The notes below the pieces were generated by a model, which was not told the origin of the DNA, made no database searches, and saw nothing but the letters and a program-made list of their open reading frames with translations. Below are positions 1 to 16,716 of a stretch of 18,076 nucleotides of DNA, piece after piece. The DNA is from a virus (Duplodnaviria; Heunggongvirae; Uroviricota; Caudoviricetes), in the IMG/VR virus record IMGVR_UViG_2731957842_000001, positions 1 to 18,076 of that record; one strand, 5' to 3'. Each line of letters starts with the position of its first letter. Position 1 is the stretch's first letter. Both the position numbers and the translations under genes were made by a program.

Positions 1-553
1 GGCCAGTTCCTTTCCGGCCTGATAAACGCTGTTTTACTGCGTTAAGTTTTGCCTGTTGTGCACTGACACGCGCCAGCGCGTCGCGCTGACGGTTAAGCTG
101 GGCAGTGGTTTCACTGATACGGTTTTTCAGTCCCTGCTCATCATGTGCAAGATTGCGGGTATTAATTCCCACAGCGGCCAGTTCCCGCTGCTGGCGTTTA
201 ACGGAATCTGTCAGGCGGTTATATTTCGCCTGTAAGTCCTCCGCCGCACGCTTTGCGGATTCCAGCACTTTCGCCTGAGCACGGGTCGGACGTTCGGTGT
301 TTTTAAACTGTGTGGCAAGGGCTTCGGCCTCCTGCCGTGCCTTTTCAAGTGCATGACCAGTCACGGCGAGCTGTGCACTGGTCTTGCGGAACCCCTCAAT
401 ACGGGATGCGTGACCGTTCAGCTCGCGCAGTGATTTTTGTGTTTCCCGGATATCCCCCGACAGCGACTTGCTCGCTGTGCGGATGGATTTAAACGGGCGG
501 GATGCCTGGTCAACAGCCCTGAGCAATACCTGTAATTTTACATTGTTACTCAT
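1..553 (-). CDS. T: Tail tape measure protein, N-terminal part; 3' end runs off the window
   Basis: Minus-strand ATG at 553 (reverse complement of cat 551-553) opens a frame reading MSNNVKLQVLLRAVDQASRPFKSIRTASKSL..., coiled-coil-like and matching the recalled P2 gpT N-terminus. It sits immediately downstream of E/E', as in P2. Not in the ORF track because it is truncated by the window edge. Confidence 0.8.
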   Translation of the reverse strand, partial: MSNNVKLQVLLRAVDQASRPFKSIRTASKSLSGDIRETQKSLRELNGHASRIEGFRKTSAQLAVTGHALEKARQEAEALATQFKNTERPTRAQAKVLESAKRAAEDLQAKYNRLTDSVKRQQRELAAVGINTRNLAHDEQGLKNRISETTAQLNRQRDALARVSAQQAKLNAVKQRLSGRKGTG

Positions 554-973
554 TCGTGTTTCCGCTTCGCCGGAGCGCCTTTTCGCGCCATGTGATGAGT
601 TCGGTCAGGCTCATGGGATACAGTTCTGATGGCGGCCAGTGAAATATCACAGCCACATCTGCCATCAGGTCATCGACCGAGAGATTTTTCGGAAACGTCA
701 CTGCACCGAGTTCGGCGACAAAAAACCGACCACCTTACCGGCCAGCGCCACAAGGTCAGGCAGTTCCAGCGCGGCGACTTCCTGCTCGGTCAGCATCGGT
801 GCCGTCATGCGCGGCAGCACCTTAATCAGTGCATCGACTTCAGAGTTCGCGACCGCAGCCAGACTGACACCGCGCAGCGTCCCGGCATTGGGTTTCATCA
901 GCGTGACCTGTTCGATAACCTGCTCACCACGCTTGACCGGATTGTCCAGGGTAATCACATTTTCTTTGTTCAT
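546..973 (-). CDS. E+E': Tail assembly chaperone E+E', -1 programmed frameshift product (~142 aa)
   Basis: Hand translation in the -1 frame from the T_TTT_TTG heptamer continues ...VAELGAVTFPKNLSVDDLMADVAVIFHWPPSELYPMSLTELITWREKALRRSGNTNE to a stop at 546-548, overlapping the T start. Length is as recalled for P2 E+E'. Confidence 0.7.
698..973 (-). CDS. E: Tail assembly chaperone gpE (zero-frame product)
   Basis: 91-aa ORF MNKENVITLDNPVKRGEQVIEQ...; same length and position (between FII and T) as P2 E, and contains the slippery site near its 3' end. Confidence 0.85.
   Translation of the reverse strand: MNKENVITLDNPVKRGEQVIEQVTLMKPNAGTLRGVSLAAVANSEVDALIKVLPRMTAPMLTEQEVAALELPDLVALAGKVVGFLSPNSVQ
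719..725 (-). other. Slippery heptanucleotide T_TTT_TTG for the E/E' -1 ribosomal frameshift
   Basis: Plus strand 719-727 is caaaaaacc; on the minus strand the zero-frame codons are GGT TTT TTG, giving an X_XXY_YYZ heptamer at the conserved tail-chaperone position. Confidence 0.7.
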
Positions 974-1029
974 GGTTTTCTCACTTCTGAATCGGTGTTA
1001 ACCGGTCAGCCAGGCTGACCGGATGAAAA

Positions 1030-1548
1030 TCACAGGCCGATATTGCGGCGGTGTTGCTCCAGCCGGTCGACGCCGTTCACCTTCTCAATCATGTTGATGG
1101 TGTCGATTTCGACCAGCTCCTTACCGTCCATCGTCAGCCGGAAATAGGTGCAGACCACGGAGATTTTCGACTCGGTGTCTTCTCCCTGTTTGCCCTCGCC
1201 GGTGTCGATTTCTTTCTGACGTCCACGCATGACCACTTCGACGGCCACCGTTTCGCCGGTATCGTCGCGCTGGTAAGAGCCTGCAAAACGAATCGGCACG
1301 GCATCCACGCCGGTTGCGGCGTAAAGCTCCCAGATAACCGAATCCGGGAAGCCCCCGAGCGACCACTCCATTGACAGCGCATCATCATCAAGGCCGAGGT
1401 CTACCGGTGCGCTGCCGTTCATCCCCGCACCGCGATAGTTTTCGAGCTTACGGGTCAGTTTTGGCAGCGTGACGGACTTTGCAACGCCCTGATAGCTGTA
1501 GCCGTTCAGAAAGACGTTCATTAACTTGAGTTTGCGCGGCATTGCCAT
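1030..1548 (-). CDS. FII: Major tail tube protein
   Basis: 172-aa ORF MAMPRKLKLMNVFLNGYSYQGVAKSVTLPKLTRKLENYRGAG...; length and sequence match recalled P2 gpFII, directly downstream of FI. Confidence 0.9.
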   Translation of the reverse strand: MAMPRKLKLMNVFLNGYSYQGVAKSVTLPKLTRKLENYRGAGMNGSAPVDLGLDDDALSMEWSLGGFPDSVIWELYAATGVDAVPIRFAGSYQRDDTGETVAVEVVMRGRQKEIDTGEGKQGEDTESKISVVCTYFRLTMDGKELVEIDTINMIEKVNGVDRLEQHRRNIGL

Positions 1549-1560
1549 CGGTCAGGCTCC

Positions 1561-2751
1561 TTAATTGCTGTTAACCGAGGTGACCAGATTTGCCAGGTAT
1601 TTATCGGTAATACGCTGGCGCAGGGTCAGGTTTTCGAGAGGAGGCACCGGTGTATAGTCGTAGTCGATATACAGTTTTCCGGCCTTGAGGGTTTCCGCAT
1701 CGTTGGATTCTTCGCTGAACCAGCATGAGCCATCCACGATATAGCCGTTTGTTTTCAGCTCACGGAATTTGGCATTGATGCCGTCAACGATGTCGCGAAT
1801 CAGCGTTGCGGTGATGGGCTTGTCCACCGCCCACATGTGCGCCTCAGCCATCGTGTCGGCCAGCACCTGCGCGGTGCGGGTGTAGTTTTCAAAGAGGAAC
1901 AGCGGGTCATCAGAGCAGGTACGGTTACCCCAGAAGCGGAAACCGTCGCGGCGAATCAGCGTTGTGACGCCTGACTCATTAAGCAGGTCAGCATCGGTGC
2001 CGGACTCCTGCAAATCCCAGAATACAGATGCGCTGATGCCGGTAACACCGTTCACACCGACGTTGGACAGCGTTTTATGCCAGCCCTGCTCCTGGTCGAT
2101 TTTGGCACGCAGCCCCAGCGCACGGGCGGTGGCATACGCGGTGGCGGTGGTACTGGTGACCGTATCCCATGCGAGGAAATCCGGCCAGATGACCATCAGC
2201 TCACGCTGGCTGAAATTCTGGCGGTAGGCTTTCACCTCGGAAATGGTCTTACAGCCCCATGCGCTGATATATCCGAAAGCGCGCAGCTTCTGACAGACGG
2301 ATGCCAGTGCAACAGCCACCTCTTTGGTATCCAGCCCCGGCACACCGAGAATACGCGGTTTAACACCGGTTACCGACTCCGCCGCCAGCAGGGCTTTTAG
2401 TCCGGTGTACTGACCGTTTTCGTCGGTGGTGCCGATGATATTGGAAACGGTCTGCGCGAGTTTCGTTTCCTCGTCATCACCGGTGCCGTCTTCCACGCGC
2501 ACGACAACGGTGACCGGTTTTGACTGGTCAGCGATGGCCTGCAACGATGCCGCCAGCGTGCCTTTTTTACCGGCCTTTGCAATTGCGCTCTGCACATTGG
2601 TAATCAGCACAGGTTTATTGAGGGGGAAGGTTTCCGCATCCGCATCGCTGGCCGTGCAGACCATGCCGACAATGGCAGTGGATACGGTGGAAATGACGCG
2701 GGTGCCGTCGTTAATCTCCAGCACCTGCACGCCGTGATGATAGTCACTCAT
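1561..2751 (-). CDS. FI: Contractile tail sheath protein
   Basis: 396-aa ORF MSDYHHGVQVLEINDGTRVISTVSTAIVGMV...; length and sequence match recalled P2 gpFI. Confidence 0.9.
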   Translation of the reverse strand: MSDYHHGVQVLEINDGTRVISTVSTAIVGMVCTASDADAETFPLNKPVLITNVQSAIAKAGKKGTLAASLQAIADQSKPVTVVVRVEDGTGDDEETKLAQTVSNIIGTTDENGQYTGLKALLAAESVTGVKPRILGVPGLDTKEVAVALASVCQKLRAFGYISAWGCKTISEVKAYRQNFSQRELMVIWPDFLAWDTVTSTTATAYATARALGLRAKIDQEQGWHKTLSNVGVNGVTGISASVFWDLQESGTDADLLNESGVTTLIRRDGFRFWGNRTCSDDPLFLFENYTRTAQVLADTMAEAHMWAVDKPITATLIRDIVDGINAKFRELKTNGYIVDGSCWFSEESNDAETLKAGKLYIDYDYTPVPPLENLTLRQRITDKYLANLVTSVNSN

Positions 2752-2810
2752 CCGTTTAACTCCGTGGTTAATGGGTGAGTGGTATTTTCAGTTGTGCCGG
2801 AGATGTCAGG

Positions 2811-3404
2811 CTATTTGTCCCGGTTGGCTAAGGGATGACACAATTTATTCTTTGTCGCTGATGAGGGAAATTTTTTATAGAGCGTGGACAGGCCAATATC
2901 AAAAATCAGCGCCACACGTTGACGAGATTCCCCCGCAGCCAGCAACCGTCCGACCTGCTCCCACTCACTCGCGGTGAGTTTCGGACGCCTGCCACCAATA
3001 CGACCTTTAGCTCTGGCCGCTTCCAGTCCGGCGCGTGTCCGCTCGACAATGAGTTCTCGCTCCATTTCAGCCAGGGCACCCATCACATGAAAGAAAAAAC
3101 GCCCCATCGGCGTGCTGGTATCAATAGCATCCGTCAGACTGCGAAAATTAACGCCGCGTTCGCGCAGTTCCTCAACCAGAATGACCAGATGCCGCATACT
3201 ACGCCCCAGCCTGTCCAGCTTCCAGACTACCAGAGTGTCACCTGCTGATAATGTTCTGAGCAGTTTTTTCAGTCCCGGTCGGTCGGACTTCGTGCCGCTG
3301 ATTTTATCCTCAAAAATCCGCTCGCATCCTGCGCACTCCAGCGCGTTACGCTGCAATTCCGTGTTCTGGTCATTTGTTGACACGCGTACATAGCCAATAA
3401 GCAT
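2811..3404 (-). CDS. Site-specific DNA invertase, serine recombinase of the Hin/Gin/Pin/Cin (Din) family
   Basis: MLIGYVRVSTNDQNTELQRNAL...LVVWKLDRLGRSMRHL...FRSLTDAIDTSTPMGRFFFHVMGALAEMERELIVERT...GRIGGRRPKLT is near-identical in pattern to Gin/Pin, with the catalytic Ser in RVST and a C-terminal HTH. I take the second ATG (3404) as the start because AGGGGG sits 6 nt upstream of it; the track ORF starts 2 codons earlier at 3410. Confidence 0.9.
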   Translation of the reverse strand: MLIGYVRVSTNDQNTELQRNALECAGCERIFEDKISGTKSDRPGLKKLLRTLSAGDTLVVWKLDRLGRSMRHLVILVEELRERGVNFRSLTDAIDTSTPMGRFFFHVMGALAEMERELIVERTRAGLEAARAKGRIGGRRPKLTASEWEQVGRLLAAGESRQRVALIFDIGLSTLYKKFPSSATKNKLCHPLANRDK

Positions 3405-3459
3405 GAGCATCCCCCTGAATAAAAACCGGAGATGATGCCTGTTGCACGTAATCTCTGCA

Positions 3460-3485
3460 TTTTCTTAAACGTTGGTTTGGGAGAA
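3460..3485. other. Candidate gix/hix/pix-like inversion crossover site (degenerate 12-2-12 inverted repeat)
   Basis: TTTTCTTAAACG-TT-GGTTTGGGAGAA; the right half matches the recalled gix right half GGTTTTGGATAA at 10/12, the left half only about 7/12. It lies 56 bp upstream of the invertase start and at the 5' end of the tail-fibre fragment, where Din crossover sites are found. Confidence 0.35.
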
Positions 3486-3486
3486 G

Positions 3487-3690
3487 GTTCGGCATTACCC
3501 GTTGGCGTGCCTGTTCCGTGGCCTTCCGCCACTCCGCCAACAGGCTGGCTGAAATGCAACGGTGCCGCTTTTTCTGCTGAAGAATACCCGGAACTGGCAA
3601 AGGCTTATCCGACAAATAAATTGCCTGATTTACGTGGTGAGTTTATTCGTGGCTGGGATGACGGGCGTGGAGTGGATAGCCGGTCTTCAA
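3487..3690 (+). pseudogene. Remnant of an alternative tail-fibre C-terminal (variable) segment, truncated
   Basis: Plus-strand frame encodes ...PVGVPVPWPSATPPTGWLKCNGAAFSAEEYPELAKAYPTNKLPDLRGEFIRGWDDGRGVD, the conserved motif I recall just distal to the crossover site in Mu S/S', P1 S and e14 tail fibres. No N-terminal constant part precedes it and it runs straight into antisense gene R; the track ORF 3432..4043 is a chimera. Confidence 0.6.
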
Positions 3691-3701
3691 AACGCTTAAA
3701 C

Positions 3702-4169
3702 TCATTCATCCCACTTGCTCACCAGTTCGCCATTGATATACAGCTCCACCGGGCGGGTGACCGGCTCCGGCGGCGGGGGTTCCGGGATATTCTTCACATG
3801 CAGTGCGCCGTCCACCTCGCTGACCAGCGTGCGCTCGGTCAGCATCAGACTGATGCTGATATCAAAGCTGCTGTCATTGTTGATGTCTGCATAAAACGTG
3901 AAGCCCTTTTTCTGACCTTCGTCAGTGGTCATGATGTCGGGCTGATTTTCCCGCAGCCACGCCAGCACCGGCACGATGAGCAGGTCAAAATCACCGGTAA
4001 AGTCGGTCACAATGACATTGAGCGTGTAACGCTTTTCGAATGACAGCGACGTCGCCAGTGTGGAGGCAATACTCCCGTTATCCACGAATATCCGCAGCAT
4101 CTCGGGGCTGGTTTTCAGCACCGTGACGGCATCAGTCAGTGCCCTGCGCAGGCTGTCGGGTTTGAGCAT
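3702..4169 (-). CDS. R: Tail completion protein R
   Basis: 155-aa ORF MLKPDSLRRALTDAVTVLKTSPEMLRIF...; same length as P2 gpR and in the expected position after the lysis genes. Confidence 0.8.
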   Translation of the reverse strand: MLKPDSLRRALTDAVTVLKTSPEMLRIFVDNGSIASTLATSLSFEKRYTLNVIVTDFTGDFDLLIVPVLAWLRENQPDIMTTDEGQKKGFTFYADINNDSSFDISISLMLTERTLVSEVDGALHVKNIPEPPPPEPVTRPVELYINGELVSKWDE

Positions 4170-4422
4170 CGTTTTCGTCCTGACAGTGTTTAATCATTTT
4201 TACCTGGCTGGCACAGCGTGCCAGCGCGTTCTCAAGCTGCCGGATATCGGCACTTAAATCGCCGTTCGTCTCCGGGTCACTGCCCGGCATCGGGCAAAGA
4301 CTCACTTTCGGGCAGGCGTTGGCGACAATCACTGGCGTCAGTGCAGGCGGGGCGCTGGTGCAACCGGCGCACAGCATCAGGCAGGTCAGCACCGTACCAG
4401 CGGCGAAAATCTTCGTTTTCAT
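4132..4422 (-). CDS. lysC: Outer-membrane lipoprotein spanin (o-spanin), LysC/Rz1-like
   Basis: 96-aa product MKTKIFAAGTVLTCLMLCAGCTSAPP... with a lipobox (LCAGC), embedded in the +1 frame of lysB; the track ORF is longer because of an upstream alternative start. Confidence 0.75.
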   Translation of the reverse strand: MKTKIFAAGTVLTCLMLCAGCTSAPPALTPVIVANACPKVSLCPMPGSDPETNGDLSADIRQLENALARCASQVKMIKHCQDENDAQTRQPAQGTD

Positions 4423-4702
4423 TGAGTAATCTCGTGATGGTTTTCTCGCGCTGTGCTTCACGCTTCGCGGCGTTCTCCAGTTCCTGACGCAGTGCCACCT
4501 GCGCCAGCTCGTTTTTGTCTGCCCTGGTGAGCGCAACATGAAGCTGATTTTTCAGCATGGTGATGGTCGTCTGCTGCCCGCTGGCGACGTTGTTCGCCCT
4601 GTCCAGTGAGGCGCGCAGGCTGGCGTTTTCATGCTTCGCCAGAAACAGCCCCGCCACCGCCAGCGATAACAACACGACCAGTGCAATCATCAGCTTTGAC
4701 AT
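4277..4702 (-). CDS. lysB: Inner-membrane spanin (i-spanin), LysB/Rz-like
   Basis: 141-aa ORF with an N-terminal TM helix (MSKLMIALVVLLSLAVAGLFLA) and a coiled-coil periplasmic domain; same length as recalled P2 LysB. Confidence 0.8.
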   Translation of the reverse strand: MSKLMIALVVLLSLAVAGLFLAKHENASLRASLDRANNVASGQQTTITMLKNQLHVALTRADKNELAQVALRQELENAAKREAQREKTITRLLNENEDFRRWYGADLPDAVRRLHQRPACTDASDCRQRLPESESLPDAGQ

Positions 4703-5115
4703 AGTTCCCGCCCCTCAAGACGCTGACGGCAGGCCGTGCGTATCAGCCGGAAAAACAGCGACGCCACGAGATAAATCAGCGCGGTAAAAATCCACCCGGC
4801 AGCGACCAGCGCGATAAACGTCGCCACCATCACCACCAGAGCCGCCGCCCGTCTGCGCCACGGCACCGGCTGCAAAAACAGCGACGTGACAATCTTCACG
4901 GCCAGCGATTCCGGCGGCAGCTCCCGTCCGTAGCGTTCCAGTACATACTCCGTGGCATACACCCCGACACCACCGGCAACCACACAGATAACCGTCGCCA
5001 GAATCGCCCAGGTGGCGACAAAACTGACGGCCACGCTCTGCGGGTAAATCAGGGACAGTGCCAGCATCAGCGCCAGCGACACGTGCAGCATCAGTGAAAG
5101 GGATAATTTCTTCAT
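4690..5115 (-). CDS. lysA: Lysis-timing membrane protein LysA
   Basis: 141-aa multi-TM protein (MKKLSLSLMLHVSLALMLALSLIYP...) between endolysin and lysB, as in P2. Confidence 0.75.
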   Translation of the reverse strand: MKKLSLSLMLHVSLALMLALSLIYPQSVAVSFVATWAILATVICVVAGGVGVYATEYVLERYGRELPPESLAVKIVTSLFLQPVPWRRRAAALVVMVATFIALVAAGWIFTALIYLVASLFFRLIRTACRQRLEGRELCQS

Positions 5116-5129
5116 GGTGTTTACTCCGT

Positions 5130-5627
5130 TTAAGCCGGTACGCCGCCAGCGGTACGCCAGACGGTGACCAGTTTTTCCAGTGAATGCTCACGCTGACCGT
5201 AACCGGCACCCGGCAGGGACGCCCAGATATTGCGACAGCGTGAAATGGCGCGCTCAATGCGTCCCGCCCGGATGTCATCCAGTGCACCGCGTTCGCGGAT
5301 CAACTGAATGGCAAGTCTGTCCTGTGACAACGGACTGAAATCCGGCAGGGCAAGCTGTTTGCGGTAGTGCGGCCAGAACAGGTAAAGCTGCTGATAGCGA
5401 CCGGAGGCCGTGGATTTTTCACCGCGACGGTTAAACACCTTCGCCGGTCGGCCATGCGCGAACGGGTGGTCACTGTAGTCGGTAAAAATTTCCGGCTTCC
5501 CGTCCAGTCCGGTGACTATCACGTCATAGCCCCGGTTTTTCGTCAGCGGATGATTCGCCGTCCCTTCGGACACGGCCAGCATGTCGAGAAAGGCGGCGAT
5601 ATTCTGGTGCGTGTTAATTACCGGCAT
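5130..5627 (-). CDS. K: Endolysin (lysozyme-type)
   Basis: 165-aa ORF MPVINTHQNIAAFLDMLAVSEGTANHPLTKNRGYDVIVTG...; matches recalled P2 gpK in length and sequence. Confidence 0.9.
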   Translation of the reverse strand: MPVINTHQNIAAFLDMLAVSEGTANHPLTKNRGYDVIVTGLDGKPEIFTDYSDHPFAHGRPAKVFNRRGEKSTASGRYQQLYLFWPHYRKQLALPDFSPLSQDRLAIQLIRERGALDDIRAGRIERAISRCRNIWASLPGAGYGQREHSLEKLVTVWRTAGGVPA

Positions 5628-5908
5628 TACGGTTTCCCCCTGCCCTTAAAGCGGCGCTGAATGGCAATCTCAATCACCTGATAACCGGCGATACCCAGCA
5701 TGGAGCCGATGCCGCACACCGCAGGCAGTGACAGGTCAGGAAACTGCACCAGAACAACACCGGCAACCATCGAGACAAAACCACCGAGCAACATGCGCCC
5801 GATAAACAGACGCGGGGTGATGGGTTCACCACCGGCAAGCACCTTGCCGACAACAATCAGCACCCCAATCATGAAAAGCGACAGGACGCTTTTTTCTTCT
5901 GCTGTCAT
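5627..5908 (-). CDS. Y: Holin
   Basis: 93-aa ORF with hydrophobic TM segments (MTAEEKSVLSLFMIGVLIVVGKVLAGG...); overlaps the K start in an ATGA arrangement, as P2 Y does. Confidence 0.85.
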   Translation of the reverse strand: MTAEEKSVLSLFMIGVLIVVGKVLAGGEPITPRLFIGRMLLGGFVSMVAGVVLVQFPDLSLPAVCGIGSMLGIAGYQVIEIAIQRRFKGRGKP

Positions 5909-5911
5909 GCG

Positions 5912-6115
5912 TTACTCCCACAGATTGACAGTTTCAGCCACGGGCGCTGTCTGAACGTCGGGCAGTTCGACGGCGGTGCCGTGTGGCAGCACCGCACCCA
6001 GTTCAGACAGTCCCGGATTTGCGGCGAGCACGGTCTCAACCACGCCCTCAGTGCGCCCGTAATACCGGACACAGATGGCGTCGAGCGTGTCGCCCTGTAG
6101 CGCAAAGGTCTTCAT
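5912..6115 (-). CDS. X: Tail protein X (LysM-like)
   Basis: 67-aa product from the internal Met: MKTFALQGDTLDAICVRYYGRTEGVVETVLAANPGLSELGAVLP...; its start overlaps the L stop. Confidence 0.7.
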   Translation of the reverse strand: MKTFALQGDTLDAICVRYYGRTEGVVETVLAANPGLSELGAVLPHGTAVELPDVQTAPVAETVNLWE

Positions 6116-6624
6116 CAGATTTGACTCACGATGCAGCGCGGCTTGTCCTGGATACGCGCCACCGCCCAGCGCATATCCCGCCACAGCTCATCAATGGTGC
6201 TGTCTATGCTGTCGGCCTTTTTGTCGCCTTTCGCACTGGCATCCACGCCGCGATAACGCTCATAAAGCGACGCGGTCGCCATCGCACACACGGCGCGCTC
6301 GTAGTAAAAAACCTTGATGCTTTCACCGTCGATGTCGTCCGCCGGGACGTCCGCCAGACGCGTAAAACCGGCGGCAATTTTCTGTTCGCGGTACTCGTAC
6401 AGCTCCGCATTCGTCTCCGCCATGCCTGACTTGATGGCCTCTCGCAGACGGGCGGGGGCGACGGTCTGCTCAAGGCGCATACGTTCCCGGACGCGCTTCG
6501 GGTCGATATCGGGAAAAAAGAACGTGTTTTTAATCACCGGCTCGTCGCCTGCCGGTTGCGGGATGACCACCGTACCCTCACCGGACACGGGAGCCTCCTT
6601 TCGCGGAATAATCAGCGTCATCAT
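6115..6624 (-). CDS. L: Head completion / stabilisation protein
   Basis: 169-aa product starting MMTLIIPRKEAPVSGEG at 6624 with an AGAGG Shine-Dalgarno 5 nt upstream; the track ORF extends further from an alternative start. Confidence 0.8.
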   Translation of the reverse strand: MMTLIIPRKEAPVSGEGTVVIPQPAGDEPVIKNTFFFPDIDPKRVRERMRLEQTVAPARLREAIKSGMAETNAELYEYREQKIAAGFTRLADVPADDIDGESIKVFYYERAVCAMATASLYERYRGVDASAKGDKKADSIDSTIDELWRDMRWAVARIQDKPRCIVSQI

Positions 6625-6723
6625 GACTACCTCTGAAAAGTCGGGCGGTGGACGCCGGTGCAGTGTCAGGTGATTCACCCTCACTGACCGGCGTGCCGCC
6701 CTGGCGCGGGGCGCATTCGGTTG

Positions 6724-7461
6724 TTAACTGGCTTTCTTTTTCGGGCGTCCACGTTTTGCCGGTGTCGCACTCCGGGTCTTACGCGGGGCGCGGGTGACCG
6801 CTTTTGGCTCCGGCTTCGGTTTCAGCTCCCGCTCCAGTCGTTCAATCTCTTTTTTGACGCCTGCCTGACAGTCGAGCTGTGTCGCACGTTGCAGGTGTGC
6901 CAGCGCACCGGCGGCATCACCACCGTCACGCAGAAACAGACCGGTGATTTTGTGCAGCTTTGCGCGCACTTCATCAGGCATGTCAGCCGTGGCGGTCAGT
7001 TCAAGGGTGTCCGTCAGCAGGCGGGGATCCACAGACTCACCGGCAGCGTGAGCGCGCATGGCCGCGAGCGCCACCTCCTCGGTGAACATGTACGGCGGGG
7101 TGCGGCGGTGTTTACCCGGCATGGTCAGACCGTACTTCAGGGCGTAACGGGCAATCTCCAGCGCGCCGGCAATATCACCGGTATCCAGACGCCACAGCAT
7201 GACCGTCATCAGAATGTCATCCTGTGCGCCTTTGCCCTGCTCCAGCACGCCGTTCACCCACGGCAACCAGAACGGCAGCAGTTCGCGTTTTTTTGCGGCC
7301 TTCAGCTCTTTTGAATAAATCGCTTTCAGTGTGCGCTGGTCTGCGGCGAGCTTAACCAGCATCTGCTCATAGACAGTTGCATGTCGCAGCGGGGCGGCTT
7401 CCCGCTGCGCGGTCATCGCTGCCGAGACCCGCATCATGTGGCGCTGTGCGGGACTCGTCAT
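6724..7461 (-). CDS. M: Terminase small (endonuclease) subunit
   Basis: 245-aa ORF with a basic C-terminal tail (...RAPRKTRSATPAKRGRPKKKAS), directly downstream of N; matches recalled P2 gpM. Confidence 0.85.
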   Translation of the reverse strand: MTSPAQRHMMRVSAAMTAQREAAPLRHATVYEQMLVKLAADQRTLKAIYSKELKAAKKRELLPFWLPWVNGVLEQGKGAQDDILMTVMLWRLDTGDIAGALEIARYALKYGLTMPGKHRRTPPYMFTEEVALAAMRAHAAGESVDPRLLTDTLELTATADMPDEVRAKLHKITGLFLRDGGDAAGALAHLQRATQLDCQAGVKKEIERLERELKPKPEPKAVTRAPRKTRSATPAKRGRPKKKAS

Positions 7462-7464
7462 CGG

Positions 7465-8538
7465 TTACGCTCCCGGCTCTGCGGTCGCCCTGGCCGGTGT
7501 GGAGAAATCACCGACCTTAATTTTTTCCACCAGACAACCGGCGGCGTAGTCTTCCACCACGTAATCAATGTTCATTGACTCGTAGTTCTCCACGCGGTCG
7601 AGTTTCGGGTTTTCCACAATCACGCGGCGATGGCTGTCATCCATGTAGTAGATGGACAGGTTTTCCAGCTTCGTGATGAGCATCGCATCCGCCGGGAAGT
7701 ACGGGACACGTACCGCCGGCAGGTTACCGATGCGTTTCTGGCTGATGATGACGTCAGCGGCCAGCATTTCGCTGTTGTCCTGCTCCTTGTTGACGATGGG
7801 GAAATACTTGTCCGCCAGTAGCTGACGCCCCACAATCACCACAAGGTCAGGGTCTTCCTGATACCACGGCTCAATCAGGTTGTTGGTCGCATCCATCACC
7901 AGTGCATCGAGGCTGGCATAATCACCGCCCTTACCCACGCGGATGACCTCAGAGGTCGTGTGACCTTCCTCGTCAGTAACCTTGCTCATCACGCGCGCCG
8001 GGGCTTCATTGCGGTATTTCTGCAGCCAGCCGACCGCCACATCCTGCAGCATCGGGTTACTGCTGCGGTCAGAGGTTTCGGCACGCTTCACGCCGTTAAA
8101 ACCGGCCATGATGAAATCAAGGGACTGGCGTTTGATAATGGCGTTACGGACACGGAGCTGGAAATCCTGATAACGCGCCCACAGGTCCAGCGTTTTGTAG
8201 CGGATATAAAAATCGAAGTTAATCTGGTCGCATTCGTACTTGTTTGACGCCAGCTTCGAGAAGTCCTTCGGCTGGCGCTCGGTGCCACCGGCGGTGTCGG
8301 TGGTGCTGGCGATGGAGCCGGTGACACCGATGCCAATTTTTTCCCCTTTCATTTCGCTGACCGGCACAATGTTGATGCGGGTCAGAAAGTCAGAGGACTC
8401 CTGCATGGTGTTCATCAGGGTCTGGGTGACCGACGGTTCAACGGTGAATTTTTTCGACACATCACCGGCGTCGATGCCGTTCAGTTCGGCAACACGGGAC
8501 AGGTAAGCATTAAATTTAAAGCGGGTTTCCTGGCGCAT
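7465..8538 (-). CDS. N: Major capsid protein
   Basis: 357-aa ORF MRQETRFKFNAYLSRVAELNGIDAGDVSKKFTVEPSVTQTLMNTMQESSDF...; length and sequence match recalled P2 gpN. Confidence 0.9.
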   Translation of the reverse strand: MRQETRFKFNAYLSRVAELNGIDAGDVSKKFTVEPSVTQTLMNTMQESSDFLTRINIVPVSEMKGEKIGIGVTGSIASTTDTAGGTERQPKDFSKLASNKYECDQINFDFYIRYKTLDLWARYQDFQLRVRNAIIKRQSLDFIMAGFNGVKRAETSDRSSNPMLQDVAVGWLQKYRNEAPARVMSKVTDEEGHTTSEVIRVGKGGDYASLDALVMDATNNLIEPWYQEDPDLVVIVGRQLLADKYFPIVNKEQDNSEMLAADVIISQKRIGNLPAVRVPYFPADAMLITKLENLSIYYMDDSHRRVIVENPKLDRVENYESMNIDYVVEDYAAGCLVEKIKVGDFSTPARATAEPGA

Positions 8539-8596
8539 AGTTTTTCCTGAAATTAAGGGTTAATCGTGAAGGTTTTCCCGGACTGACTGACGCCGG

Positions 8597-9451
8597 TCAG
8601 CAGTTCGTCATCAGGGCGTCACCGCCACCACCGGTGGCCTTGCTGCGGCGCTGCTGGGTCAGACTTTCGGTGTGGTCGAGACTGTTTTTCAGGCGGGTGA
8701 ATGCCTGGCTGGTTTCATCCGCCCTGTCAGTCACCTCCTGCTTAAGTGCGGAAAAGGCGGTTTCCATCTCAGCGAGGCGCTGCTCAGTGGCGCTCAGTTT
8801 TTCCTGCACATGTTCAGCAACAGCGGTCACCGCTTCATGCACATCATTCAGACGGGCGTCATCGCTGGCCTGTTTGCGGCCAAAAATGGATTTCACCTTT
8901 TCGGTCAGGGCGGTGAACACGGTTTCAGGCAGGTCTTCAAATTCCAGCTCAACGGGCGTTGCCACTGAAATCAGGTTTTCAGGGCTTAATTTGAAGCGGT
9001 TCAGAGGGTTGTGTTTTGCCGTGCGGCAGAATTCCAGGTATTCCGTGCCGAGGCTTGCCGGGTCATCGGTGACGGCCAGCCCCACCAGATAACATTTGCC
9101 GGTGTTGGCAAAGTTCGGCTGAATTTCCATTGAGGTGTAGACCTTCTGCGCGGCCTTGTTCATCGCGATAAGGTCATCGGTCGGGGTGATTTTCGCAAAC
9201 AGCGCCCATTTGCCTTTCAGCGCCGAATCGTCATCAATCTTTTCGGCCTTCAGTTCGACCACATCGCCATAACGTTTAAAAATACCGTCAGGCAGGATGC
9301 CGCGCAGATGTTCCAGGTTAATGCGGCAACCGTAGACACGCGGGTCAAAGGTTTCGGCCATTTCCTGAATATCCTGCGCACTGATGACACGCCCGTCACA
9401 GGTGTCACCCTCAACGCCGATACGAAAGAATTTTGAGACTTTTTTTGCCAT
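8597..9451 (-). CDS. O: Capsid scaffolding protein
   Basis: 284-aa product from the internal ATG at 9451 (MAKKVSKFFRIGVEGDTCDGRVISAQDIQEMAETFDP...); the track ORF starts further upstream. Confidence 0.85.
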   Translation of the reverse strand: MAKKVSKFFRIGVEGDTCDGRVISAQDIQEMAETFDPRVYGCRINLEHLRGILPDGIFKRYGDVVELKAEKIDDDSALKGKWALFAKITPTDDLIAMNKAAQKVYTSMEIQPNFANTGKCYLVGLAVTDDPASLGTEYLEFCRTAKHNPLNRFKLSPENLISVATPVELEFEDLPETVFTALTEKVKSIFGRKQASDDARLNDVHEAVTAVAEHVQEKLSATEQRLAEMETAFSALKQEVTDRADETSQAFTRLKNSLDHTESLTQQRRSKATGGGGDALMTNC

Positions 9452-9624: not shown

Positions 9625-11397
9625 ATGACCATCACCACAGACACCACTCTTTTACACGACCCGCGTCGTCAGGCGGCGCTGCTGTACTGGCAGGGGTTTT
9701 CCGTGCCGCAGATTGCCGCCATGTTGCAGATGAAACGCCCGACGGTGCAGAGCTGGAAACAGCGCGACGGCTGGGACAGCGTTGCCCCCATCAGCCGTGT
9801 CGAAATGAGCCTGGAAGCGCGGCTGACCCAGCTCATCATCAAACCGCAGAAAACCGGCGGTGACTTCAAGGAAATTGACCTGCTGGGACGCCAGATTGAA
9901 CGACTGGCGCGGGTCAACCGCTACAGTCAGACCGGCAACGAGGCAGACCTTAATCCGAACGTCGCTAACCGCAACAAAGGCGGGCGTCGCAAACCGAAAA
10001 AGAATTTTTTCAGTGACGAAGCCATCGAAAAGCTGGAGCAGATTTTCTTTGAGCAGTCTTTCGACTATCAGTTGCACTGGTATCGCGCCGGGCTTGAGCA
10101 CCGCATCCGCGATATACTGAAATCCCGCCAGATTGGCGCAACGTTTTATTTTTCCCGCGAGGCGCTGCTGCGCGCCCTGAAAACCGGCCATAACCAGATT
10201 TTTCTGTCGGCCAGTAAAACGCAGGCGTATGTGTTCCGCGAATACATCATCGCCTTTGCCCGTCTGGTTGACGTTGACCTGACCGGTGACCCGATTGTCC
10301 TGGGCAATAACGGCGCAAAACTAATTTTTCTCGGCACCAACTCCAACACCGCACAGAGCCATAACGGCGACCTGTACGTCGACGAGATTTTCTGGATCCC
10401 GAATTTTCAGGTACTGCGTAAGGTGGCATCAGGTATGGCCTCACAGAGTCACCTGCGTTCGACCTATTTCTCCACCCCGTCCACGCTGGCGCACGACGCC
10501 TACCCGTTCTGGTCAGGTGAACTGTTCAACCGGGGACGCGCCAGCGCCGCCGAACGCGTGGAAATCGACGTCAGTCATAACGCCCTTGCCGGTGGGCTTC
10601 TCTGTGCGGACGGCCAGTGGCGGCAGATTGTCACCATTGAGGACGCCCTGAAAGGTGGCTGCACGCTGTTCGACATTGAGCAGCTCAAACGTGAAAACAG
10701 CGCCGACGATTTTAAAAACCTGTTCATGTGTGAATTTGTTGACGACAAGGCGTCGGTGTTCCCGTTCGAGGAGCTGCAACGCTGCATGGTCGACACGCTG
10801 GAAGAATGGGAAGACTATGCGCCGTTTGCCGCCAATCCGTTCGGCTCCCGCCCGGTATGGATTGGTTACGACCCGTCACACCGTGGCGACAGCGCCGGAT
10901 GCGTGGTGCTGGCACCGCCGGTGGTGGCCGGTGGCAAATTCAGAATACTTGAGCGTCACCAGTGGAAAGGCATGGACTTTGCCACCCAGGCGGAATCCAT
11001 CCGCAAACTCACCGAAAAATATAACGTTGAATACATCGGGATTGATGCCACCGGCCTCGGTGTCGGCGTGTTCCAGCTCGTGCGCTCGTTCTATCCCGCC
11101 GCGCGCGATATCCGCTACACGCCGGAAATGAAAACCGCAATGGTGCTCAAGGCAAAAGACGTTATCCGCCGTGGCTGTCTGGAATATGACGTCAGCGCCA
11201 CCGACATCACCAGCTCGTTCATGGCTATCCGCAAGACCATGACCAGCAGCGGACGCAGCGCCACCTATGAGGCCAGCCGCAGCGAGGAAGCCAGCCACGC
11301 CGACCTCGCCTGGGCAACCATGCACGCCCTGTTAAATGAGCCACTCACCGCCGGTATCAGCACTCCGCTGACATCCACCATTCTGGAGTTTTACTGA
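9625..11397 (+). CDS. P: Terminase large (ATPase) subunit
   Basis: 590-aa product from the ATG at 9625, with GAGG 6 nt upstream; the stop overlaps the Q start (TGATG). Length and sequence match recalled P2 gpP. Confidence 0.9.
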   Translation: MTITTDTTLLHDPRRQAALLYWQGFSVPQIAAMLQMKRPTVQSWKQRDGWDSVAPISRVEMSLEARLTQLIIKPQKTGGDFKEIDLLGRQIERLARVNRYSQTGNEADLNPNVANRNKGGRRKPKKNFFSDEAIEKLEQIFFEQSFDYQLHWYRAGLEHRIRDILKSRQIGATFYFSREALLRALKTGHNQIFLSASKTQAYVFREYIIAFARLVDVDLTGDPIVLGNNGAKLIFLGTNSNTAQSHNGDLYVDEIFWIPNFQVLRKVASGMASQSHLRSTYFSTPSTLAHDAYPFWSGELFNRGRASAAERVEIDVSHNALAGGLLCADGQWRQIVTIEDALKGGCTLFDIEQLKRENSADDFKNLFMCEFVDDKASVFPFEELQRCMVDTLEEWEDYAPFAANPFGSRPVWIGYDPSHRGDSAGCVVLAPPVVAGGKFRILERHQWKGMDFATQAESIRKLTEKYNVEYIGIDATGLGVGVFQLVRSFYPAARDIRYTPEMKTAMVLKAKDVIRRGCLEYDVSATDITSSFMAIRKTMTSSGRSATYEASRSEEASHADLAWATMHALLNEPLTAGISTPLTSTILEFY

Positions 11398-12430
11398 TGA
11401 GCAAGAAAAAAGGGAAAACACCGCGACCTGCGGCAAAAACAATCACCGCCAGCGCCCCGAAAATGGAAGCATTCACCTTTGGCGAGCCGGTGCCGGTACT
11501 CGACCGCCGTGACATTCTGGATTACGTCGAGTGCATCAGTAACGGCAGATGGTATGAGCCGCCGGTCAGCTTTACCGGTCTGGCAAAAAGCCTGCGTGCT
11601 GCCGTGCATCACAGCTCACCGATTTACGTCAAACGTAATATTCTGGCTTCAACGTTTATCCCGCACCCGTGGCTTTCCCAGCAGGATTTCAGCCGCTTTG
11701 TGCTGGATTTTCTGGTGTTCGGTAATGCGTTTCTGGAAAAGCGTTACAGCACCACCGGTAAGGTCATCAGACTGGAAACCTCACCGGCCAAATATACCCG
11801 TCGTGGCGTGGAGGAGGATGTTTACTGGTGGGTGCCGTCCTTCAACGAGCCGACAGCCTTCGCGCCCGGCTCCGTGTTTCATCTGCTGGAGCCTGATATT
11901 AATCAGGAGCTGTACGGCCTGCCGGAATATCTCAGCGCCCTTAACTCTGCCTGGCTGAATGAGTCGGCCACGCTGTTCCGCCGCAAGTATTACGAAAACG
12001 GCGCACATGCCGGATACATCATGTACGTCACCGATGCCGTGCAGGACCGCAACGATATCGAAATGCTTCGCGAAAACATGGTTAAGTCGAAAGGCCGCAA
12101 CAACTTTAAAAACCTGTTTCTCTATGCCCCGCAGGGGAAAGCTGACGGCATTAAAATTATCCCGCTCAGTGAAGTGGCAACGAAGGACGATTTTTTAATA
12201 TCAAAAAAGCCAGTGCCGCAGACCTGCTGGATGCGCACCGCATCCCCTTTCAGTTGATGGGCGGCAAGCCGGAGAACGTCGGGTCGTTGGGTGATATTGA
12301 GAAAGTGGCAAAGGTCTTTGTCCGCAATGAGCTTATCCCGTTACAGGACAGGATCCGCGAGATAAACGGCTGGCTCGGTCAGGAGGTCATCCGCTTTAAA
12401 AACTACTCACTGGACACTGACAACGGCTGA
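11397..12430 (+). CDS. Q: Portal protein, reading frame interrupted by an apparent 1-nt deletion in a T-run at 12191-12196
   Basis: The frame from ATG 11397 reads 266 aa of portal sequence, then ...KDDFLISKKPVPQTCWMRTASPFS to a stop at 12257. The -1 frame from 12197 reads NIKKASAADLLDAHRIPFQLMGGKPENVGSLGDIEKVAKVFVRNELIPLQDRIREINGWLGQEVIRFKNYSLDTDNG to a stop at 12428-12430, just before a terminator. Joined with a T7 run, the product is about 344 aa, as recalled for P2 gpQ. Confidence 0.8.
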
Positions 12431-12457: not shown

Positions 12458-12599
12458 ACACCCCGTCATCACGCACTCACACGCTCACCACCGCACAAAA
12501 CACCCCGCAGACACACCAATGCCCCGGCGCACAATCTAAACGCTGTCACGACGCGCTCAGACGCTGAAAAAATAAAATCAGCACCACCGCCAGCGCGCA

Positions 12600-12618
12600 G
12601 TGCTTTCCCCGCCTCGCC
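12600..12618. other. cos cohesive-end sequence of the P2/186 type
   Basis: GTGCTTTCCCCGCCTCGCC is the reverse complement of GGCGAGGCGGGGAAAGCAC, which I recall as the 19-nt P2 cohesive end. It sits just distal to Q, where cos lies in P2. Confidence 0.7.
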
Positions 12619-12742
12619 CGCCCGCTTCATGGGGCGGTTTTAATGCAAATGCATTCTGGTTCCATGCATTTTGATGGCAATAGTATACGCACAAAATTTA
12701 TCGGACATAACGTATGCATTTTCATGCACCGTCATGCCCCCC

Positions 12743-12832: not shown

Positions 12833-14531
12833 ATGTTAACAAAATTCTCAGGAAAAAATTACAAAGCATTTAAGGATTTCTCGTTCGAGATTAAGCCTAT
12901 AACGGTGTTATTAGGAGCAAATAGCTGTGGAAAAAGCGCACTTATCAATTCACTTTTGATGTTTTCACAAACAGCAGAAACAATAAACATTTCCGAATCA
13001 GCACTAAGATTAAATGGAAATAAGGTTGGCATGGGGGAATCTCTGAATATCATCAGAGAAAAAACCCAAAAACACCTTAAGTTTTTCATTTGAAATATCA
13101 AATCAACAATCCTTGCGATACGACATTCACAAAAGCAAGCGCGATTTTATTGACTTCTATTTTTCACTTGCCAGATATTTGGGACAAGTATTAAAAAGTG
13201 CGGCATCAACAACACCCAGCAGTGATTTGATGAACAATAGTTTTAATGACACATTAAAAACTATTGATAAAATCGAATCAAACTATATGTTTAGAGACAC
13301 TTACAACTCTGCACAACTTAAAGCCATTTCTGATGGTGTTTGCGAATTATTATCAAAATACAGACAACTACCTGAGGATGTTGCAAAAAAATCCCGTCCA
13401 CATCTCGATCGACTAGCAGAGTTTGTTAATATTGTTTCTTTCGAAAACATTCAAAGCAGCTTAATGTCATTAGCATCTCTTAGTGCAAAAAAAATATCCC
13501 CCAAACGAATTGATTATGATTTTTGCTTTGATAAAAAATCAAACCAACTAAAAATAACCGGGTGCGCTTTTCATAATCACTTAGGCGAATGCATCACCAG
13601 CTTGGGTATATCTAAAGGGAAATTCTTTTTACGCTCTGACGTTATTAAAAGAACTCACTTAAGCAAATCCCGAGAAGAGATATCGAAGCTAATCAATTTC
13701 AATTCACTATCCCTTATAGATGAAATTCAAAACGTTAATTTCATTGACAAACACATTGTGTCCCTTGACCCATTCGCTAGTTTATTCTGCAACTATCTTG
13801 AGAAGCTAACAAAAGCATTTATCTCTGAGTTTAATGGTGTAAAAATAAATCATGTCAGCCCATTAAGGGCATTCCCTCAACGCTACTATCTTTTAGACAA
13901 GTCTATACAGCATACTTTTCTTAATGTTCTGGAAGGTAATGAACTGGCTGAGGTGTTAAAGAAAAATCCAGAAATAAAAAATAAAATTAATATTTTACTG
14001 GCAAAGTTCAATCTTGAAGTAGATGTCGTCATGGTTAATGACATCATTCATAAGATCAACATCACCCAAGATTCCATCTCTCTAGAGTTAACAGATGTAG
14101 GTTTTGGCATATCTCAGGTTTTACCTATTTTGGTTCAAGCCTATTTGTCCCCTAAAAATTCCATCACTATTATAGAACAACCAGAAATTCACTTACACCC
14201 CAAAATGCAAGCATGGCTCACTGACGCTTTAATTCACATTGCATTAAAAGAGAAAAAAAGATTTATTATTGAAACTCACAGTGACGCTCTAATCAGAAGA
14301 ATCAGATTGCGTATTGTTGATACTAAATCGAGCCTTACACCAAATGATGTAATGCTTTGCAATCTTGAAAGAAAATCTGAAGATAATGTCACTAGTTTAA
14401 AAGTGATTCCTATTACCGAGGATGGAGATATAACTTGGCCTGCGGATTTTTTAGACATTGAAATTCAAGACACACTTCAAATCCAGAATTTTAAAGTTAA
14501 AAAACATCTTAAAAGTAAAGGTCTGTTATAA
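12833..14531 (+). CDS. SMC/OLD-type ABC ATPase (AAA_15/AAA_21-like), frame interrupted in an A-run at 13059-13064; ~565 aa if bridged
   Basis: N-terminus MLTKFSGKNYKAFKDFSFEIKPITVLLGANSCGKSALINSL carries a Walker A (GANSCGKS). This frame stops at 13093, while a second frame is open from 13047 and continues ...KPKNTLSFSFEISNQ... to 14531. The C-terminal region has a signature-like GFGISQ, Walker B ITIIEQPE and H-loop HLHP, with a long helical insert between. The region is ~30% GC. Its stop is immediately followed by the next gene's ATG. Confidence 0.75.
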
Positions 14532-15533
14532 ATGTTTTACACTCATTGTATAAGCCCTGAATTCATGGGGCTTCACATCAAAAATATGGACACTTTTATT
14601 TCGATTTTTATGGGTGTTTTAATGAATCCGAAGAACCAGATCGTTTTAGATGAGGCAGGAATAATTGAACAACAATATTTATTAAGTCTTAATAACGACA
14701 AATCAGCTTTTTTGCTCTACCAAACTTGGGAGAAAGCCATAAAATCAGACAGTTGCCAAGGTAAACTATTACTTTCTTCTCCCAATATATCATCTTCAAT
14801 ACATGATTATGTAGTTTCAGCTATTTCATGTGCTATAACCACAAACGACAAAACAATATTAACTGCTGATAACAATTTGTACAGCGCGGCTTTACCTGTT
14901 TTATCCAGACAAAGAATTCACTTACTGGGAATAAGTCATCTAACCCCTCAATCATCAGCAAGCATTATAGGTAAACATATGTCTTTTACAAAACTTGATT
15001 ATGATATTGCCTGGTCTCTAGAGAGATTGGTTCGGCTTCATCGAAAAGGGAACACAGAGGATGACTTAAATGACTTACTCCGTGAATACTTGCTTGCGAA
15101 GGAATACGAGATAAAAGACCAAACTCGTGAAGGCATATCTACAAGTGGAAAGAGCGCCGGAGAACTTGATATTATTGTTGAGCACAACTCAAACATGTTT
15201 GCAATACTAGAAGCAATGAAGCTTAGTCAGATAAACAAGGAGTATATCACCATTCATTACAAAAAAATGCTTGTCAATTACAACCCTCTGGACGTAAAGA
15301 GATTATTCCTCATTACTTATTACGATGGAAAAAAATTCGATACTTGGTGGGATAACTACGTTGAATTTGTAAAAAGTATAGACTACACCACATTAAACCC
15401 TGAAGTCGAAAACACAACATTTGTTAACACAGAAAAGATTAACACGAACTTTGGGAATGTAAAAAAAATGCTACACCACGGTCTGGCTAATGGTGAACAA
15501 TTTTCCGTCATACATTATGCAGTAAAACTGTAA
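14532..15533 (+). CDS. Partner protein of the ATPase, function unknown; candidate effector
   Basis: 333-aa ORF starting 1 nt after the ATPase stop (TAA-ATG), with the same low GC. No family recognised by eye. Weak motifs: VLDEAG plus a downstream DYD (possible Toprim/DUF4435-like) and GELDIIVEH...ILEAMK (possible restriction-endonuclease-like). Followed by a strong terminator. Confidence 0.65.
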   Translation: MFYTHCISPEFMGLHIKNMDTFISIFMGVLMNPKNQIVLDEAGIIEQQYLLSLNNDKSAFLLYQTWEKAIKSDSCQGKLLLSSPNISSSIHDYVVSAISCAITTNDKTILTADNNLYSAALPVLSRQRIHLLGISHLTPQSSASIIGKHMSFTKLDYDIAWSLERLVRLHRKGNTEDDLNDLLREYLLAKEYEIKDQTREGISTSGKSAGELDIIVEHNSNMFAILEAMKLSQINKEYITIHYKKMLVNYNPLDVKRLFLITYYDGKKFDTWWDNYVEFVKSIDYTTLNPEVENTTFVNTEKINTNFGNVKKMLHHGLANGEQFSVIHYAVKL

Positions 15534-15834: not shown

Positions 15835-16323
15835 TCATAAATTCCATTCGGATACTGTTGAATAACCAAGCCACTCATCAGCGACCGGATACGTGAATTT
15901 TTTCCCGTCATAATTTACGGTCGCGCCACGCGCCAGCGCCTCAAGCTCCCATCGCTGCGGCCTGATACCGTTCTGAGCAAGGTCAACGCGGATACGGGTG
16001 ATTTGCATTCGTTCCGACCGGGTCAGTCTGGCCGACGGTGCAATTTCATATGGTTTTAACGGGCTTCCGTTTCTTTGCTGACGGTTTTGCGTTCTCCGAC
16101 CGTGTTTTAATGCGCCCCTGAGCGCCCTCACAACCTCCGGGTCATTCCATTCTATAACCCCGTCATCAACCAGATTAAGCACTGCTGCAGCGTGCTCAGA
16201 CGGTGTGGGAGCCTGTAATGAAGTATCACCACCGGTGAGCTTTCCACAGTTATTGACAGGACTCCGAGGCGCGGCGATGCCGCTTTTTAAAGTCAAAGGC
16301 TCAACGACCGGCACTTTCGGCAC
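15835..16323 (-). CDS. Hypothetical protein, likely last gene of the phage early-region operon
   Basis: 162-aa ORF at phage-like GC, transcribed toward cos as P2 early genes are. The start is uncertain: GTG at 16323 with no convincing ATG or Shine-Dalgarno. No family recognised. Confidence 0.45.
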   Translation of the reverse strand: MPKVPVVEPLTLKSGIAAPRSPVNNCGKLTGGDTSLQAPTPSEHAAAVLNLVDDGVIEWNDPEVVRALRGALKHGRRTQNRQQRNGSPLKPYEIAPSARLTRSERMQITRIRVDLAQNGIRPQRWELEALARGATVNYDGKKFTYPVADEWLGYSTVSEWNL

Positions 16324-16425
16324 AATGCGCCAGTCCGTGGTTCTGGTGATATGAATATGACGCGCGCCGAGATGCGGCGCGTAATTCAGCCTGTTGTTCC
16401 TGAATAAAATCTACGTTGTCCGGCA

Positions 16426-16716
16426 TTACCAGTTCCTTTTGTCGTTCAGTTTTTTAAATTCATCAGCGCAATAGCTGGCGATTTCTGTCGTTAATTTCGT
16501 CAGTTCATCCACGGAGGAAATTTGCTTGTGAAATACAGCGCGTTTAACAAGTAAATTGACCACATCAGACAGGAGATTTAATTTATCCGCATAAATGGCT
16601 ATAGTTGATTCCACCATATCCCCAGTGTTTTTATCGCGTTTAATATCAGCTAGCGACAAATCACCATTTTTCATGACTGAAATCTTCAGCCAGTTATTAA
16701 GCAATATATTTTTCAT
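16426..16716 (-). CDS. Hypothetical protein
   Basis: 96-aa ORF, ~38% GC, overlapping the upstream ORF by 4 nt (operon-like packing). No family recognised. Confidence 0.4.
   Translation of the reverse strand: MKNILLNNWLKISVMKNGDLSLADIKRDKNTGDMVESTIAIYADKLNLLSDVVNLLVKRAVFHKQISSVDELTKLTTEIASYCADEFKKLNDKRNW

Follow-up and report, generated by a model that had tools for sequence, protein, structure and literature searches.

The P2-like prophage contig analysed here raises the question of whether its portal gene Q has been broken by mutation or whether a base is missing only from the deposited sequence. The window (the whole stretch of DNA that was analysed, 18,076 nucleotides) is the entire contig JTFE01000060.1 of assembly GCA_001441335.1 from E. 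coli VL2874. The original prediction, made from the letters alone, was that gene Q is interrupted at a run of six Ts, and it left the choice between a real lesion and an artefact open, which we judge to have been correct. The features concerned are as follows.

11397..12257, + strand: gene Q (portal) as encoded, a 286-aa ORF, deposited as KRR52433.1
12191..12196, + strand: T6 run, T7 in relatives; a single missing base breaks the Q frame
12197..12430, + strand: C-terminal 77 codons of gpQ in the -1 frame, from ORF reading and protein identity

The six Ts at 12191-12196 are flanked by A12190 and A12197, in the context ...ACG AAG GAC GAT TTT TTA ATA TCA AAA AAG CC.... The ORF at 11397-12257 encodes 266 native gpQ residues (to F266) followed by 20 out-of-frame residues, LISKKPVPQTCWMRTASPFS, which are unrelated to portals and end at a TGA stop (12255-12257). 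The -1 frame from 12197 starts with NIKKASAADLLDAHRIPFQLMGG and ends with ...DTDNG and a stop at 12430, and its full reading is NIKKASAADLLDAHRIPFQLMGGKPENVGSLGDIEKVAKVFVRNELIPLQDRIREINGWLGQEVIRFKNYSLDTDNG. A 57-aa gene covering the C-terminal part of the portal is annotated separately over 12257-12430. When gene Q was aligned to gene Q of L-413C, there was exactly one gap in 1,035 bases, and it fell at the T run, which is T7 in L-413C. The predicted interruption at the T6 run was thus borne out both by the ORF reading and by this single gap. Translation likewise agreed with what had been proposed for the two frames, namely a stop at 12257 after 20 foreign residues and a portal-like tail in the -1 frame from 12197 to 12430. 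The deposited Q does not form one uninterrupted frame of about 344 codons, being broken at 12191-12196, and adding one T gave a portal of 344 aa, as had been expected. The break had been placed 77 codons before the C-terminus; the position is right, while the loss amounts to 78 residues (267-344), since the count of 77 starts from N268, a trivial difference. Judged from the alignment with L-413C, which excludes a chance pattern, the T shortfall is a true property of the deposited sequence. The longest homopolymer of gene Q is T7, which is therefore the expected weak point for polymerase slippage and base-calling alike.

The identity of the gene as a P2-family portal gene Q was confirmed by full-length similarity and by its context between terminase gene P and cos.

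9625..11397, + strand: gene P (large terminase subunit, 590 aa), intact, with Pfam Terminase_6N/6C
12600..12618, no strand assigned: P2-type cos cohesive-end sequence GTGCTTTCCCCGCCTCGCC, identical to the L-413C genome end

The TGA stop of P shares one base with the ATG of Q, and the L-413C record ends in 25 bases that align without a mismatch to window 12594-12618. Between the Q terminator and cos, 13 bases (12463-12475) are shared with L-413C and missing from the XJ34 prophage, an ordinary intergenic indel polymorphism. With one T inserted, 341 of the 344 residues of Q match L-413C gpQ. Against P2 gpQ, the restored protein has 98.8% identity. It agrees at every position (residues 1-344, 100% identity) with the translated portal of Yersinia phage vB_YpM_50, which is viable, and with a gpQ allele found on at least 1,000 contigs in the protein collection. 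The stretch after the break (12197..12430) is 100% identical at the protein level to XJ34 gpQ, and, read in the portal frame, none of the 4 codons that differ there changes an amino acid. Since the restored protein is a common allele and these differences are synonymous, Q carries no sign of decay beyond the one base. At the DNA level, the Q region is 97-98% identical to gene Q of P2-group phages, and a 'phage portal protein' gene with 97-98% DNA identity to it is present in 1,672 of 5,426 complete E. coli genomes. Restored Q matches Pfam PF04860 (Phage_portal) over residues 89-327 with 53.3 bits (cut-off 39.1). As encoded, Q matches over residues 89-238 only and falls below the cut-off, with 31.8 bits, because the portal domain is cut at residue 266. 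It had also been considered that portal homologues might truly end at the position equivalent to 12257. This is excluded, as portal homologues down to 45% identity run on beyond it through a conserved C-terminal region (HRxPxQxMG ... FVRNELxPLQ ...). A search by sequence for a solved portal structure that would name the lost structural elements returned none.

To compare the run with that of other genomes, we used an 81-mer around it. Complete E. coli genomes gave 1,097 records (1,170 places) that match the window 81-mer, none of them exactly, and the best 8 of these records differ from it by one extra T only. A T6 query with the commonest flanking haplotype was exact in 1 of 1,492 matching records (1,689 places) from complete E. 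coli genomes. The run is T7 in all 80 IMG/VR relative loci and in the phage records listed. Moreover, all 10 sister prophages listed, each with a 333-aa cargo protein identical to that of the window, have T7 and a 344-aa Q. The exact 286-aa Q product is recorded on JTFE01000060.1 only. The lesion is therefore a one-base change in a long A/T run that is private to the assembly, as an artefact would be, and T6 was absent from the relatives examined.

The lone exact T6 record among the 1,492 is E. coli FORC_082 (NZ_CP026641.1), whose Q (FORC82_RS08510) is annotated by PGAP as a frameshifted pseudogene in a truncated prophage. We sought the sequencing platform of FORC_082 in the literature and found no paper. 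The assembly collection indexes the 57-aa portal C-terminal fragment, as a separate gene, in 278 blocks. At 10 places sampled from these, T7 -> T6 was the commonest lesion (6 of 10 split-portal loci), on backgrounds that are 96.6-98.6% identical to each other. Extra homopolymer indels in the same gene were seen in assemblies L003, L004, L006, and L010, which points to noisy consensus sequences. An A8 -> A7 contraction near the start of the gene is common to L004 and L010.

According to its published description, the VL2874 genome was assembled with Newbler 2.6 from Roche 454 GS FLX Titanium reads into 141 contigs, with a mean read depth of 25 (s.d. 26) and an inferred read error of 1.17% (PMC4556653). 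The same description gives 99.41% of bases at Q40+ for VL2874, below the 99.80% of VL2732 in this one-strain comparison (PMC4556653). A second paper on VL2874 makes no mention of prophages or frameshifts (PMC4725725). In 454 assemblies, homopolymer miscalls cause artificial frameshifts that affect 2.1-2.8% of genes, and these frameshifts are biased towards A/T runs and rise with run length (PMC3277595). The assembly is thus what an artefact of this kind presupposes, namely pyrosequencing at a mean depth of 25 without polishing on another platform.

If the lesion is such an artefact, other discrepancies of the same type can be expected in the assembly, and they were found at 13059-13072 and at 24-26.

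13059..13072, + strand: two homopolymer shortfalls in the ATPase gene, A7 -> A6 at 13059-13064 and A6 -> A5 at 13068-13072
24..26, - strand: A3 where two relatives have A2, a gap against L013 and L014

The two A-run shortfalls are four bases apart (window GAGAAAAAACCCAAAAAC, relatives GAGAAAAAAACCCAAAAAAC) and break an AAA_15/AAA_21 ATPase gene at 12833-14531 (566 aa) into pieces of 86 aa and 433 aa. All five complete genomes with the ATPase gene have 88 bases where the window has 86 and are otherwise identical, all 10 sister prophages listed have two more bases at window 13059-13072, and the alignment with the XJ34 prophage shows both shortfalls as well. Once restored, the ATPase differs from the XJ34 protein by 1 aa. 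The nearest sister, found via the 333-aa cargo protein, shares 98.7% identity with the window from P to A. In the 3.2-kb cargo region the identity is 99.85%, with 3 substitutions and the two A-run gaps as the differences. At this distance, the sister shows the indels to be private but is too far removed to date them. The ATPase shortfalls are probably the same kind of 454 error as that in Q. The extra A at 24-26 lies 26 bases from the contig end within a tape-measure (gpT) fragment and is probably a read-end error that shifts the frame of the last residues of that fragment. The single-base indels private to the contig are all homopolymer length changes, and all four are coding and frame-breaking. 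For eight other runs in the contig, 7-8 bases long, the relatives show the same length. We also considered the C6 at 12737-12742, upstream of the ATPase gene (C5 in XJ34), as a fourth error and rejected it, because 6 of 10 sisters also have C6, which makes it a natural polymorphism.

The ATPase gene and its 333-aa partner span 12833-15533, between cos/Q and gene A, the site at which P2 carries variable accessory genes (old/tin). The best PADLOC match of the ATPase was NsnB (177 bits), with weaker matches to PARIS AriA, GajA, and PtuA. Its partner matched nothing in PADLOC or Pfam, and the assembly collection has the identical 333-aa protein in 315 indexed blocks. Together with this uncharacterised partner, the ATPase is a candidate for an anti-phage system of two genes.

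The original prediction held that the element may be intact if the interruption of Q is an artefact. This is not supported, as S, V, W, J, I, H, and most of gpA are missing. The losses lie at two junctions.

3677..3679, no strand assigned: deletion junction 1, the invertible tail-fibre segment joined to the first ~30 bases of gene S
16381..16384, no strand assigned: deletion junction 2, with 4-base microhomology GTAA, from alignment with intact relatives

At junction 3678, about 5.6 kb has been lost (H, I, J, W, V, S; baseplate and tail-fibre genes). Window 1-3678 corresponds to L014 8353-12029 and window 3678-9079 to L014 17612-23019. The match to PSS-08-2 breaks off after 235 bases of the invertible tail-fibre segment that adjoins the invertase, and resumes in early gene S. 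A Hin/Gin/Cin-type invertase (197 aa, Resolvase and HTH_7) is encoded at 2811-3404 and is followed by the invertible tail-fibre fragment. The 178-aa 'Collar' ORF at 3507-4043 is a chimera across the 3678 junction, antisense to gene R. At junction 16381-16384, about 2.2 kb has been lost, comprising three quarters of gene A (its N-terminal part) together with a DUF5405 gene and the greater part of a TraR-like gene. What remains of replication gene A is its C-terminal ~550 bases (window 15835-16426), with a 57-aa remnant ORF at 15835-16008, while gpA has 762 aa in the ten sister prophages listed. No complete E. coli genome spanned the 3678 junction, and ORF look-ups for both junctions did not find either of them elsewhere. 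Likewise, in a search for independent assemblies of the deleted prophage, the 286-aa product, the 3678-junction ORF, and the 57-aa gpA-remnant ORF were found on this contig only. With their short microhomologies, the two deletions look like illegitimate recombination rather than repeat-driven misassembly. Apart from Q, the genes of the head and packaging module (O, N, M, L, P) and cos are intact. As assembled, the prophage is defective with or without a working Q.

We consider it very probable that the T6 run is a homopolymer undercall in a low-coverage 454/Newbler consensus. This reading is favoured because the genome is a 454/Newbler draft, the lesion is private to the assembly, and similar shortfalls split the adjacent ATPase gene. 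The DNA of VL2874 would then carry T7 and an uninterrupted 344-aa portal gene Q. In pyrosequencing, a run of identical bases is read as one light pulse, whose intensity is hard to resolve at runs of 6 to 8, A/T above all, so that the consensus loses a base. From the missing base, its uniqueness, the platform, and the companion errors, we infer that the reads rather than the DNA are at fault. The alternative that the lesion is a real mutation seems unlikely. It would be a replication slippage from T7 to T6 in an already defective prophage, which would make Q a very young pseudogene in VL2874. Without the 78 conserved residues of the C-terminus, its 286-aa product would very probably not make a working portal. 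Other inactivating lesions do exist in the prophage, at 3678 and 16381-16384, as decay would predict. These two deletions, with 1-base and 4-base microhomology, are unique to the contig, look real, and are typical of illegitimate recombination. Purifying selection on Q may therefore already be relaxed or gone, and genuine slippage is plausible, which counts against an artefact. Runs of seven U or A are also under-represented in E. coli genes, for which the authors of that study suggest frequent indels or transcriptional slippage as a possible cause (PMC4066793). Signs of relaxed selection elsewhere in Q (amino-acid changes or stops) were sought and none were found; there is no amino-acid change in the other 344 codons relative to the common functional allele. 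The T6 allele was found in no independent assembly, T6 occurs in at most 1 of about 1,500 matching finished E. coli records, and 454 is the platform most prone to exactly such an error. The double ATPase shortfall, too, is difficult to account for by real mutation, and it shows that homopolymer errors are present in the consensus. Two independent real contractions 4 bases apart in an otherwise near-unchanged ATPase gene are very unlikely, while correlated undercalls within the same reads are typical of 454. The lack of amino-acid change and the synonymous-only downstream differences fit an artefact or a very recent event equally.

The two explanations can also be compared by rough estimates. 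Eight other 7-8-base runs are correct, so the per-run error rate is not high; with 1 of 9 other such runs wrong, the chance of a 454 consensus error per run of at least 7 bases in the contig is roughly a few percent to ~10%. For a real contraction, we used as the clock the divergence of the cargo region, which amounts to about 5 x 10^-4 substitutions per site on the window's branch, and assumed that the indel rate of a 7-base run is about 5-50 times the per-site substitution rate. With these rate ratios, a neutral T7 run would have roughly a 0.2-2% chance of contracting, and finished genomes give about 0.07% (1 of 1,492 matching records). Set against each other, the error chance and the contraction chance give odds of roughly 10:1 or better for an artefact. 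Published figures are similar to our per-run estimate for the contig. A further point against an artefact is that T7 -> T6 occurs on several other backgrounds, in 6 of the 10 split-portal loci and including one RefSeq complete genome with the FORC_082 portal pseudogene; some of these changes in other assemblies may be real. It is accordingly conceivable, though we regard it as highly unlikely, that real mutations recur at the T7 tract of gpQ, as a hot spot through which P2-like prophages lose their portals again and again, with VL2874 as one instance. Domestication of prophages could then often begin with the change from T7 to T6, or the change could serve as a reversible switch.

A functional split of Q, by -1 ribosomal frameshifting at U_UUU_UUA, by transcriptional slippage, or by a reversible on/off switch of the T tract, is extremely improbable. 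The T6 allele does place the heptamer gaU UUU UUA in register, and a -1 slip would re-enter the portal frame exactly. A downstream stimulatory structure is lacking, however, as the fold of 12186-12290 is no stabler than shuffled sequences (z = +0.49). An AAGGA element lies merely 3 bases upstream of the heptamer, whereas stimulation of -1 frameshifting in dnaX needs a spacing of roughly 10-14 bases. Moreover, U_UU.U_UU.A is absent from the heptamers listed with >0.1% frameshifting without stimulators in E. coli, and the best unstimulated heptamer motifs reach about 0.3% (PMC4066793). Nor is the split arrangement conserved, since the relatives are in frame with T7 (80 of 80 in IMG/VR and 10 of 10 sisters listed). 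In distant Peduoviridae, the DDFFNIK residues are kept but the T run is broken by synonymous TTC TTC, TTT TTC, or TTC TTT, and thus the tract itself is not under selection. With no structure, a weak heptamer, and neither tract nor split conserved, we rejected programmed -1 frameshifting and transcriptional slippage.

The biological weight of the Q frameshift is very small. If real, it adds a further inactivating mutation to a P2-like prophage remnant that is already without baseplate, tail-fibre, and replication genes, and even then the T6 lesion is an ordinary late decay step of a defective P2-like prophage. Its practical use is as a caution: frameshifts in A/T runs of this 454-only draft, including those that split the candidate defence ATPase beside Q, should not be taken as pseudogenes by default, and tools that score the intactness of prophages would miscount them.

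Compared with gpQ of P2 and Peduovirus, the window has the same gene order, with the stop of P overlapping the start of Q and cos 170 bases downstream, and differs in that Q is one base short in T7 and is split into ORFs of 286 aa and 57 aa. In FORC_082, the split portal likewise shows T7 -> T6 at this position, and the prophage there is truncated too (its scaffold gene is partial). Unlike the window, it has another background (3 SNPs within the 81-mer) and other cargo genes, and it comes from a finished, PGAP-annotated genome. In comparison with the homopolymer errors of Roche 454/Newbler assemblies, we saw no difference in kind: the Q lesion is a single-base undercall, the A/T run has 6 or more bases, the draft was built from 454 reads only and at moderate depth, and further undercalls accompany the lesion in the same contig.
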